Assembly (NCBI GenBank): GCA_951406725.2
Contig: OX597820.1
Coordinates: 27,962,001 to 28,026,000 of the forward strand
Origin: Octopus vulgaris
Taxonomy: Eukaryota
Length of the DNA: 64,000 nt
Reading direction: 5' to 3'
The notes beneath the pieces were generated by a model that had not been told where the DNA came from, did not search any database, and saw only the letters and a list, made by a program, of their open reading frames with translations. Position 1 is the first letter of the stretch; every line of letters begins with the position of its first letter. Of the stretch, positions 12,001-60,995 are shown piece after piece. Made by a program: the position numbers and the translations under genes.

Positions 12001-12417
12001 CAGTCTTGACCAAAGGTTTGGTACATTTTTAAAAAGAAGTAAAACTACTATGCCCAACTATATAATTCCATGCAAATATAGCGTTTATATTTGGGCATTT
12101 GATATAAAAATTCTAATTTTCAGACCTATGCTCCAAACGTTTGCCCAAGTTATAATATGTTGCAAATTAAATAGAACTTTGGCCATTTAATATAAAAATT
12201 CAAATTTTCAGATCTTTGCTCCAAAGTTTTGGCCAATTAATAATATATTGCAAATTAAATAGAACTTTGGCCATTTAATATAAAAATCCTACTTACCAGA
12301 TCTATGCTCCAAAATTCTGGTCAAGGAATAATGTGTTGCAAATTATATACCACATTGGGCATTTAATATAAAAAGCCTAATTTTCTGACCTATGTTCCAA
12401 ACGTTTGGTCACGACTG
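12001..12417. mobile_element. Tc1-type MITE containing about four tandem ~88-bp units
   Basis: 21-bp TIRs CAGTCTTGACCAAAGGTTTGG (12001-12021) and CCAAACGTTTGGTCACGACTG (12397-12417), followed by TA. Units start at ~12073, 12163, 12251 and 12338. Confidence 0.8.
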
Positions 12418-20918: not shown

Positions 20919-21150
20919 ACTATCCCAATCAAACAATCATATATCTGTCTGTTCGTGTGAGTGATTATGTGTGTATGCATATATTTCAATTGCTTCAGTC
21001 ATTAGGCTGCAGCACTGAGGCTGTTTGTAAAACAAACACGCGCGCACTCACGCATATGATTGATTGATTGATTCTAGTTTCAGCTTATGAGCTGTGGCCA
21101 TGCTGGGGCACCGCCATTTATATATTCGTGTAAACCACCGCCATATATAT

Positions 21151-21576
21151 ATTAATTTCCAGTAAACGCTGCCGTAATCTCTTTTATAGAGACTTAGTAA
21201 TTTTAATATTTCTATTATTGAAAACAAGTGGATGTATTCCACTGAAACTAGGTAAATAGAAACCTTCGAACAGAGACGTCAGTGGCGACACCTTCGGGGT
21301 CTGACTGCGCTACATTGACAAGGGGCAATACCCCGAAACGCGTCTGTAGCTGTCGGACTGGCAGTGTGAAGCGGCTGACCTCCCTTGTTCGAAGGTTATA
21401 ATGGATACAGATCGTGTATCAATAGCTATCTTAAGGCGGTGGCCTCATGGAGCTGACCAGCGGCAGCGATTATTCTTATATCTATAAGAATGCCATATTA
21501 ATATGGCGATAACAATTAATTTCCAGTAAACGCTGCCGTAATCTCTTTTATAGAGACTTAGTAATTTTAATATTTC

Positions 21577-21582
<6 letters not shown>
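21151..21582 (+). mobile_element. Retrozyme-like non-coding element, copy 1 (364-nt monomer plus 68-nt terminal redundancy)
   Basis: 21151-21218 is identical to 21515-21582. It is flanked by (TA)n, has a central hammerhead and no credible ORF. Confidence 0.8.
21309..21350 (+). ncRNA. Minimal type I hammerhead ribozyme, U3-A8 core variant
   Basis: GCTACA-TTGACAA-GGGG-CAATA-CCCC-GAAA-CGCG-TC-TGTAGC. 6-bp stem I, 4-bp stem II, palindromic stem III and a GUC cleavage triplet. Confidence 0.85.
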
Positions 21583-21641
<59 letters not shown>

Positions 21642-39623: not shown

Positions 39624-39682
<59 letters not shown>

Positions 39683-39728
39683 TTATACATATATGCATGC
39701 ATATATACATATATATGTCTTTCTGTGT

Positions 39729-39760
<32 letters not shown>

Positions 39761-39764
<4 letters not shown>

Positions 39765-40193
39765 GTTATCGCCATACTAATATGGCATTCTTATAAAAAT
39801 AAGAATAAAGCTGACCGCTTATTAGCTCCATGAGGCCATCGCCTTAAGTTAGCTATTTGATACACAAACTGTATCCATATAACCTTCGAACAAGGGAGGT
39901 CAGTCGCTCCACACTACTTGACCGACAGCTACAGACGCGTTTCGGGGTATTGCCCCTTTTCAATGCAGTGTAGTCAGACCAGTAGGTGTCGCTTCCGACA
40001 ATCTCTGTTCGAAGGTTTTATTTACCTAGTTTCGGTGGAATACATCCACTTGTTTTCAATAATAGAAATATTAAAATTACTAAGTCTCTCTAAAAGAGAA
40101 CACGGCAGCGTTCCCGGAAAATAATAGTTATCGCCATACTAATATGGCATTCTTATAAAAATAAGAAGAGAGACTTAGTAATTTTAATATTTC

Positions 40194-40198
<5 letters not shown>
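39761..40198 (-). mobile_element. Retrozyme-like element, copy 2 (362-nt monomer, 45-nt redundancy, 31-nt inverted end)
   Basis: 39761-39805 is repeated at 40123-40167. 40168-40198 is the reverse complement of 40060-40090. Flanked by (TA)n. Confidence 0.8.
39929..39968 (-). ncRNA. Minimal type I hammerhead ribozyme, U3-A8 core variant
   Basis: CTGCA-TTGAAAA-GGGG-CAATA-CCCC-GAAA-CGCG-TC-TGTAG. Confidence 0.85.
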
Positions 40199-40240
<42 letters not shown>

Positions 40241-40713
40241 TATTTACAAGTAAATATATATATATATGTGTTTGTGTTTGAGTGTGTGGGTGTTTGTATG
40301 CATGTCTTTATGTACATATTTATCTATCTGTATATATGTATATGCATATGTATGTGTGTGTGCTTGTGTGTGTGTGTTATTTTGTGTGAGTGTATTTGTG
40401 TATTTGTCAACAGACGAATTCACATTAAGTATATTGATCCCTACAAGTGATCCGGGTCGGATTCTAAATATTTTATTTAGGTATATCCCTCAGTGCAGAT
40501 GTGTGACTTCGTGTGATTCCAACAGAGGTCGCGTTAAAATAAAGTTTGCTTAGCAATGTTTCTTCTTGCCCTTCGTGTACAGAGGTGGCAAATTAAAGTA
40601 TATAGCTTTACTCTTATGGATAATCCATTACAAATATCAGTTACAAAAAAGAAACAAATTCACACCACAGCGGAAAAAGTATTAGAGATGACAGTCAGTA
40701 TATATAAAGGTAC

Positions 40714-59796: not shown

Positions 59797-60995
59797 AGCA
59801 GGGAGCTGGTAGAAACGTTAGCACGCCAGACAAAATCCTTAGCAGCTTTCGTCTGCTGTTACGTTCTGAGTTCAAATTCCGCCGAGGTCGACTTTGGCTT
59901 TCATCCTTTCGGGGTCGATAAATTAAGTACCAGTTACGTACTGGGGTCGATATAATCGACTTAATCCGTTTGTCTGTCCTTGCTTGTCCTCTCTGTGTTT
60001 AGCCCCTTGTTGGTAGCAAAGAAATAGGTATATCGTCTGCTGTTACGTTCTGAGTTCAAATTCCGCCGAGGTCGACTTTGCCTTTCATCCTTTCGGGGTC
60101 GATTAAATAAGTACCAGTTACGCACTGGGGCTGATGTAATCGACTTAATACCTTTGTCTGTCCTTGTTTGTCCCCTCTATGTTTAGCCCCTTGTGGGTAA
60201 TAAAGAAATAGGTATTTTCTTGAAATCAGCAATAAATAAGTCATGAAACGTACCTTAATACAACAAGTAATGTGCTCTTACCCACTGCTCTGAAGCATAA
60301 AGATTCCAAGCAACCTTCAGTCATGAAGATTCGTCAGAAATTTAAAAACTCTCTTGGCCTACAAGTTAACAATAAGAATGACCAAAGACACCCAATTACT
60401 GACATATCTATCATTGCTTCTCCGAATTTAGAAATTAACAATCAGAAAAACTAACGAGATCCAAGCAATGATAAACCTATCACTGATGCAAAAAACATCA
60501 AATAAAAAAACTTAATCCGTTTATCTATCCTTGTTTGTCCCCTCTATGTTTAGCCCCTTCTGGGCAATAAAGAAATAAGAAACGTTAGCACGCCGGGCAA
60601 AATCCATAGCAATATTTCGTCCCCTGTTACGTTCTGAGTTCAAATTCCTCCGAGGTCGACTTCGGCTTTCATCTTTTCGAGGCCGATTAATTAAGTACCA
60701 GTTACGTACTGGGATCGATGTAATTGACTTAATCCCTTTGTCTGTCCTTGTTTGTCCCCTCTATGTTTACCCCATTGCGGGCAATAAAGAAATAAGAAAG
60801 GTTAGCACGCCAGACAAAATCCCTAGCAGTATTTCGTCCGTCTTTACGTTCTGAGTTCAATTACACCGAAGTCGACCTTGCTTGTCATCATTTCGGGGTC
60901 GATGAAACACGTGCCAGTTGAGCGCGGAGTTCAATGTAATGGACTTACTCCTTCTCCCGAACTTCCAGGTCATGTGGCAAAATTTGAAACCAATA
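59797..60995 (+). mobile_element. Tandem multimers of the MetaSINE-like SINE (two blocks)
   Basis: TACGTTCTGAGTTCAA recurs at ~59860, 60044, 60628 and 60845. The tails AAAGAAATA(G/A)G run directly into the next unit. Confidence 0.85.

Follow-up and report, generated by a model that had tools for sequence, protein, structure and literature searches.

Our analysis makes it quite probable that the repeat at positions 39759–40199 of the window (the whole 64,000-nt stretch of Octopus vulgaris DNA analyzed here), which we call copy 2, is a non-coding hammerhead-motif repeat of about 362 nt, that is, a non-LTR retrozyme, which has two fixed ends, lies in (TA)n and likely owes its copying from RNA to a Penelope-like element (PLE) enzyme. 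Judged by analogy with described PLE insertions, its anatomy, with two internal 3′ ends, inverted 5′-truncated arms and (TA)n flanks, is that of the PLE "tail" signature.

Anatomy of the two window copies

The features of copy 2 (subfamily A) are given below; unit positions (+n) are counted from the predicted cleavage site, and S1 and S2 are the two 3′ end sites described in the next section.

39759–40199, minus strand: whole two-arm insertion, between (TA)n tracts
39759–40167, minus strand: main arm of 409 nt, made up of one 362-nt unit and a further 47 nt
40167–40199, plus strand: 33-nt inverted arm (+205 to +237) with its end at S2
40121–40167, minus strand: 47-nt direct repeat, an exact match to 39759–39805, which sets the 362-nt period
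40059–40120, minus strand: internal copy of the 62-nt "tail" between S1 and S2
39928–39969, minus strand: type I hammerhead motif
39969–39964 with 39933–39928, minus strand: hammerhead stem I
39963–39957, minus strand: hammerhead core UUGAAAA (U3, A8)
39956–39944, minus strand: hammerhead stem II, 4 bp, with GAAA next
39940–39935, minus strand: stem III palindromic hexamer (a 2-bp stem III within the 6-nt palindrome)
39934, minus strand: C after which cleavage is predicted from the hammerhead consensus
39669–39761, no strand: target tract, (TA)n-rich, at the S1 end
40197–40267, no strand: target tract, (TA)n, at the S2 end

An earlier note on this DNA had described copy 2 as a minus-strand copy with a 362-nt period, which the exact 47-nt direct repeat confirms. 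The main arm has its 5′ end at +129 and its 3′ end at S1, +175 past the predicted cleavage site. Since 40167–40199 is the exact reverse complement of 40059–40091, copy 2 is two-armed and is no simple permuted monomer. Both of its ends lie inside (TA)n and are hence ambiguous by a few bases. The A at 39969 breaks the outermost stem I pair (A·C), at which 13 of 26 other aligned rows have G-C.

The other copy in the window, copy 1, belongs to subfamily B.

21149–21583, plus strand: copy 1, one arm (a 364-nt unit plus about 70 nt)
21315–21321, plus strand: core UUGACAA, with predicted cleavage after 21344

Copy 1 has its 5′ end at +169 and its 3′ end at S2 (+239), adjoining (TA)n. The two copies are 88% identical, with periods of 364 and 362 nt. 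As the earlier note had stated, their cores share U3 and A8 and differ only at position 7 (UUGACAA and UUGAAAA), and one stem I pair reads A-U in copy 1 but G-U in copy 2; at this position (window 39966) G and A segregate within subfamily A (68 G, 50 A). Copy 2 is thus diverged from copy 1, but not through decay of a single copy, since the divergence separates two subfamilies: each window copy has many close genomic relatives, mostly 97–99% identical to it, indicating that A and B are two young subfamilies.

Genome-wide, in a 2.8-Gb genome rich in microsatellites, the exact core pattern gave 1,125 matches and a broader pattern 2,618, with none in the control for either. The repeat unit (358–364 nt) is non-coding and occurs both dispersed and in tandem, with up to about 5.5 units per arm. 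Beside A and B there are further subfamilies C, D and H and a distant lineage E/F/G.

Rfam yielded no hammerhead among the 150 window matches listed (of 172), nor in a targeted scan of 39900–40010 at E ≤ 10. A second hammerhead-like string runs from S2 in subfamilies A and B (window 40058–40020, minus strand; 21219–21258, plus strand); it was rejected as a ribozyme because the GAAA is lost in subfamilies C and D, and it may be a relic or chance. Elsewhere in the window, 59849–60215 holds two tandem copies of a 184-nt unit (91% alike), which we take to be SINE-like and unrelated to the hammerhead repeat family, and 12090–12408 holds 3.6 tandem copies of an 88-nt unit (83% alike).

Insertions end at two fixed 3′ sites

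Insertion ends were mapped in a census of all 55 exact-core loci of contig C1 (82 core matches), a sample not selected by ends, in which one locus was interrupted by N and one by the edge of the retrieved sequence. Thirty-eight of the 55 loci were two-arm inverted, all with their 3′ ends outward, and 17 were one-arm; LTR-like organization was seen at none of the dissected contig C1 loci. When start and end points were placed on the unit, 83 of 93 3′ ends fell at S1 (+167 to +180) or S2 (+232 to +240), as against only 2 of 93 5′ ends, demonstrating two fixed 3′ end sites 62 nt apart. Moreover, wherever both ends of an inverted locus lay at a site, one was S1 and the other S2 (30/30; binomial p = 9e-10); the remaining 8 of 38 had one end elsewhere. 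Copy 1 is accordingly a one-arm S2 product, and copy 2 is composed of a 409-nt S1 arm and a 33-nt S2 arm.

The same arrangement was found outside the census. Among the best matches of subfamily D, 10 of 13 inverted loci were S1+S2, and there was no S1+S1 or S2+S2 locus. The distant E/F lineage also uses two sites (+179–183 and +222–228), so that the "tail" measures about 62 nt in A, B and D and about 45 nt in E and F.

These data bear directly on the different start point of copy 2, which had been taken for circular permutation. If circles had been opened or primed at random points, true permutation would result, and the spread of 5′ ends round the unit, the arms that cross the cleavage site and the multimers would be in keeping with it. 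Such an origin is nevertheless barely credible, given that 83 of 93 3′ ends lie at two sites, that pairing is S1+S2 in 30 of 30 loci and that the two-site pattern recurs in D, E and F. With the 3′ sites fixed and only the 5′ ends variable, the differing start point is instead explained by variable 5′ truncation plus a choice between two 3′ ends. The 5′ ends themselves cluster at +38 to +46 (11/93) and near +202, at predicted stem or hairpin boundaries (L086–L137), and these clusters may have arisen where reverse transcriptase (RT) stalled or switched strands at the joint of the inversion.

Targets are TA-rich and some are duplicated

A (TA)≥4 run lay within 20 nt of 74 of the 83 site ends, compared with a window background of 4.9%. 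An 11–13-nt direct repeat, representing a duplication, flanked 7 of 81 inverted loci, some of these repeats being TA-rich. At 70 of the 81 both flanks were pure TA, and such loci therefore cannot show a duplication; the other 4 had only short matches.

S1 and S2 themselves end in AU-rich letters that merge with the (TA)n target. LINE-type enzymes can carry out twin priming, and an enzyme of this type might have produced the ends through AU-rich microhomology to (TA)n. We regard this as very improbable, because the element itself lacks a poly(A) or simple-repeat tail, its two internal 3′ ends occur strictly one per side, the arms often cover the same unit positions and a resident PLE shows the same end pattern (see below). 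The AU-rich ends also count against the PLE-driven reading, since published PLE priming starts at a position lacking homology with the cut DNA (PMC11167929; this and the other papers cited are referred to for the parts of their texts available).

Core variants within the family

The variant core had been proposed as a family trait. It is indeed dominant, but not universal: the first 100 of the 2,618 broad-pattern matches comprised 88 U3·A8, 9 C3·G8 and 3 C3·A8 cores, and exact C3·G8 cores numbered at least 44 genome-wide, in two lineages, a lower bound because some E copies carry a longer loop II. The canonical C3-G8 pair, absent from both window copies (U3·A8), is present in the sister subfamily E. 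Members of subfamily E have a 359-nt unit and long arms of up to 5.6 units (L244 = G000:C1:20002097-20004768, L270 and L277), and the subfamily seems to have more units per locus than A and B.

One locus, L257 (G000:C1:71104798-71105101), carries a mismatched C3·A8 core in both arms, which indicates that this core was already mismatched when it was copied into the genome. A tree of 23 natural copies, from which three chosen E loci that did not match the pattern were left out, had C3·G8 copies nested among U3·A8 relatives, with L257 as sister (98/95). We infer from this topology that a core reversion from U3·A8 to C3·G8 passed through a mismatched intermediate. The stem III hexamer was palindromic in 215 of 226 cores and occurred as four distinct sequences.

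Selection on RNA structure

The predicted folds of both units were far better than those of shuffled sequences (z = −7.1 and −8.1), and the three hairpins singled out by the earlier note were present in both. Substitutions between copy 1 and copy 2, rather than falling equally on stems and loops, spared the stems (7 of 178 paired versus 20 of 114 unpaired sites; p = 1e-4). Single-copy mutations fell evenly on paired and unpaired sites (55/178 versus 34/114 in A, 69/204 versus 41/123 in B), so that mutation bias is not the cause of stem sparing. Inherited within-subfamily variants showed no significant stem bias (p = 0.29 and 1.0, with small n), and neither did all substitutions between D and B on the D fold (p = 1.0), one of five between-subfamily comparisons.

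Covariation was examined in 27 natural units; in five C rows there is flanking sequence within columns 1 to ~85, which lie outside the tested structure. Within a 61-pair structure, 96.2% of cells pair, and 11 of the 61 pairs showed double changes across subfamilies, located in both stems I and II and in each of the three hairpins. The percentage paired, the number of double-change cells and the covariation score each exceeded all 500 shuffles, and RNAalifold agreed; in slid controls, pairing dropped to 35–42%. The number of covarying pairs (11; 116/500 shuffles) and the pair types (470/500) were not above shuffles, and as the alignment rows are related, few independent covariation events are represented. 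The substitution pattern and the covariation support the proposal that selection acts on the RNA structure of the unit.

The palindromic stem III would be in line with the dimer mechanism that the available text of PMC4209133 describes for type I hammerheads of animals. A hammerhead motif does not in itself prove activity, because 8 of 9 predicted frog retrozymes failed to cleave in vitro (bioRxiv 10.64898/2026.07.22.740005, available part).

Multimeric or circular templates

Seventy-three of the 93 census arms cross the predicted cleavage site, 49 are longer than one unit and 11 are longer than two. Since the arms run through the cleavage site, their templates were circles or uncleaved multimers. 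The earlier note's suggestion of circular or multimeric templates is therefore supported, albeit by arm lengths and by periodic patterns in subfamily E instead of by the permutation on which it had relied.

In subfamily A, one haplotype is repeated through the units and nearly always through both arms of a locus, with differences between loci. Nine multi-unit subfamily-A loci (indels masked) contained 36 unit differences, all singletons and none shared by a subset of units, as expected if the units of a locus had been born at once from one unit. Subfamily E, by comparison, displayed subset-shared variants in 6 of 7 multi-unit loci. The 1.9-kb arm of L270 repeats a three-unit pattern 1.75 times, with three variants shared by units 1 and 4; L277 fits a four-unit cycle; and at L275 a heteromeric unit order is common to both arms. 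The simplest reading of L270 and L277 would be rolling round multimeric circles, although tandem duplication of a multi-unit block could also yield their patterns.

Other candidate patterns were set aside. An apparent two-unit alternation in subfamily B was a gap-placement artefact, one indel having been aligned two ways (row B_058), and the patterns of L244 (301/302), L207 and L288 had no clean periodicity and partly involved CpG sites. Contigs of four presumed RNA runs covered 23–25 of the 29 bins of copy 2, which, with thousands of genomic copies and no silent control, is uninformative on expression or circles. Among the contig-level sequencing records searched, none carrying the unit was registered as RNA.

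PLE-driven insertion might also have proceeded entirely from linear, uncleaved read-through of tandem copies, with the ribozyme and circles playing a minor part in the spread. In favor of such templates, hammerhead mutants did not lower PLE insertion in vitro (PMC11167929, available part), the C3·A8 mismatch occurs in both arms of L257 and the unit order of L275 occurs in both of its arms. However, the core, stems I and II and the palindrome of stem III have been conserved, through compensatory changes, in lineages that differ by about 1.3 changes per site, the L270 arm covers its three-unit pattern 1.75 times, L277 wraps round, and linear lineages would be expected to shorten by 5′ truncation in each generation. 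We consider exclusively linear templates unlikely, while giving them appreciable weight.

Resident PLEs and the candidate driver

The genome contains a young autonomous PLE family with RT and, at the C terminus, a GIY-YIG domain (765 aa), whose frame is open in 17 of 20 loci examined. Its loci (L168–L184, e.g. L171:244-5460, with the coding frame at L171:2174-4471; G000:C6:133343000-133351000) have (TA)n targets. This PLE carries a DKG motif and, in a Neptune-type Zn-finger linker, a CxxxxCxxC motif, assigned to the Neptune and Nematis clades in the available text of bioRxiv 2021.04.23.441226. Its terminal repeat contains a U3·A8 hammerhead motif, and its insertions show two end sites 38 nt apart (16 and 4 ends) adjoining (TA)n, with one of each site used in both inverted copies seen (2/2). 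A second upstream reading frame begins just past the tail. A second, diverged PLE family (L185:2021-5183 and L187) has arms in inverted orientation, with a ~35-nt tail at just one of the ends, and a motif scan found no hammerhead in it.

We found no DNA homology between the unit and PLE terminal repeats in 50 GIY-YIG loci, mainly of two families (best E ≥ 0.01; 150 of 6,136 PLE candidates scored), apart from one match that was a neighboring retrozyme copy. A 42-nt, 74% match of the unit to the second PLE family was antisense (E = 0.35), and a subfamily-D copy beside a PLE open reading frame (ORF) (L188) proved to be a neighboring insertion in the same TA-rich tract; neither was retained. With no detectable sequence common to it and the unit, the young PLE is only a candidate driver.

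PLE coding fragments lay within 1 kb of 9 of 242 loci (some redundant), at mixed positions, and one ORF was interrupted by the element. At L034/L035 (G000:C15:69.22-69.23 Mb), a PLE coding fragment contains the same retrozyme insertion at two places 4.5 kb from each other, the doubling being either a local duplication or an assembly repeat. No autonomous PLE with an RT and GIY-YIG ORF was recognizable in the repeat, since arms run into further units and no consistent upstream PLE ORF was present at the 242 loci.

These observations also bear on whether the copies might simply be pLTR stumps, the tail ends left by truncation of an ordinary coding PLE, without a separate ribozyme element. The insertion anatomy, being exactly PLE-like, would suit such an origin. 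Yet the period is fixed at 358–364 nt, long arms continue into the same unit up to about 5.5 times, and the few PLE coding fragments are inconsistently placed, with no homology to the sampled terminal repeats; the units are therefore not stumps of a coding element, and we judge this origin improbable to a high degree. Some features also weigh against a PLE-driven retrozyme, the reading that we favor: its tail of 62 nt exceeds the 30–40 nt published and the 38 nt of the resident PLE, the unit lacks homology to the sampled terminal repeats, and the periodic patterns occur in subfamily E and not in subfamily A, to which copy 2 belongs.

Proposed mechanism

For a PLE-driven retrozyme, we propose that tandem copies would be transcribed into rod-and-hairpin RNA, in which two hammerheads could pair through the 6-nt palindromic stem III and then cleave. 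Cleavage being probably incomplete, the products would be unit-length or multi-unit RNAs that could be closed into circles. The 11–13-nt duplications, along with the published biochemistry, suggest that a PLE protein would nick both strands of an AT-rich target. To account for the end pattern observed, one DNA end would prime at the internal site S1 and the other at S2. In the insertions themselves, each cDNA arm runs back past the cleavage junction, over a length that varies up to 5.5 units, and the two arms meet head to head.

A bolder version, tentative and in our estimate somewhat short of an even chance, is that these ~360-nt RNAs are circular parasites of a Neptune-like Penelope, whose enzyme dimer starts on both DNA strands from two paired RNA sites and goes round monomeric or multimeric circles more than once, while the catalytic 3–8 pair has passed back from U·A to C·G via a mobile mismatch. 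If so, each insertion would be a readable record of rolling-circle reverse transcription.

Comparison with known systems

Non-LTR (animal) retrozymes have been described as tandem 170–400-nt units with one type I hammerhead each (PMC7229834, Cervera and de la Pena 2020). The present repeat has a hammerhead motif per unit and a non-coding unit in this size range, and it resembles them in its highly self-paired predicted RNA, its duplications of >4 bp and the co-existing PLEs. It differs in its core, mostly U3·A8, and in that most loci consist of a short insertion with two inverted arms and two fixed ends; the available text of that paper mentions neither U3A8 nor the words "inverted", "microsatellite" or "priming". 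The family here, for its part, is known from genomic DNA alone.

The PLE link for retrozymes was first proposed in PMC7229834, and animal retrozymes have since been argued to be non-autonomous PLE derivatives (Li, Clavereau and Pollet 2026; bioRxiv 10.64898/2026.07.22.740005). Our conclusion that retrozymes use PLE machinery is the same as theirs; according to the available part of that preprint, theirs draws on co-occurrence and pLTR homology in frogs, whereas ours draws on the insertion-end signature, with no pLTR homology found. Their search used canonical and minimal core models. Core-variant retrozymes were missed by Rfam here and are probably missed by canonical-core searches, so the numbers of such elements may be underestimated.

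As for PLEs, the purified Poseidon protein of Anolis initiates reverse transcription at two internal RNA sites bounding a "tail" and, where the DNA is AT-rich, cleaves and extends both of its strands, with a dimer predicted (PMC11167929, Frangieh et al. 2024). PLEs usually have the tail on one end, an inverted 5′-truncated copy and a (TA)n bias (Craig et al. 2021; bioRxiv 2021.04.23.441226), and their insertions have 8–10-bp duplications (PMC3846280, Arkhipova et al. 2013). Our loci share with them two internal 3′ ends downstream of the hammerhead, the one-end tail, inverted 5′-truncated arms, partial tandems, the AT-rich (TA)n target and duplications of ~10 bp. Unlike PLEs as described in the available texts, the element is non-coding, its tail is ~62 or ~45 nt instead of 30–40 nt, and its arms are multi-unit. 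The one-site-per-side pairing, counted here as strict (30/30), goes beyond the PLE descriptions in those texts and constrains how PLE inverted insertions form.

In the parts of the literature covered, we found no description of the repeat family; nor did these texts report a tail signature with two sites for any retrozyme, a strict pairing of S1 with S2 or arms with a periodic multi-unit order. Together, these comparisons lead us to classify the repeat as a non-LTR retrozyme family with a variant core and PLE-type ends. The question of which enzyme mobilizes animal retrozymes, like that of whether their templates are circular, has so far been argued mainly from co-occurrence and terminal-repeat homology. 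Retrozyme copies with the PLE-specific two-site tail signature, in a genome where a young intact PLE shows this signature too, provide a concrete candidate enzyme–template pair, with exact predicted priming positions (+175 and +237) for the existing in vitro assay. The interest of the family lies in the end signature and this testable pair rather than in the core variant.

U3-A8 minimal hammerheads are known from the Cercyon PLEs of Schistosoma (PMC4209133, Cervera and de la Pena 2014), which share with our family the U3-A8 core covariation and a palindromic, dimer-type stem III. According to the available text, the Cercyon hammerheads are minimal, with a long helix II, and mostly single motifs, whereas helices I (5–6 bp) and II (4 bp) are of canonical size here and stand in a tandem retrozyme with C3·G8 sister lineages. 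These natural sister ribozyme motifs with U3·A8, C3·A8 and C3·G8 cores permit a direct comparison of activity.
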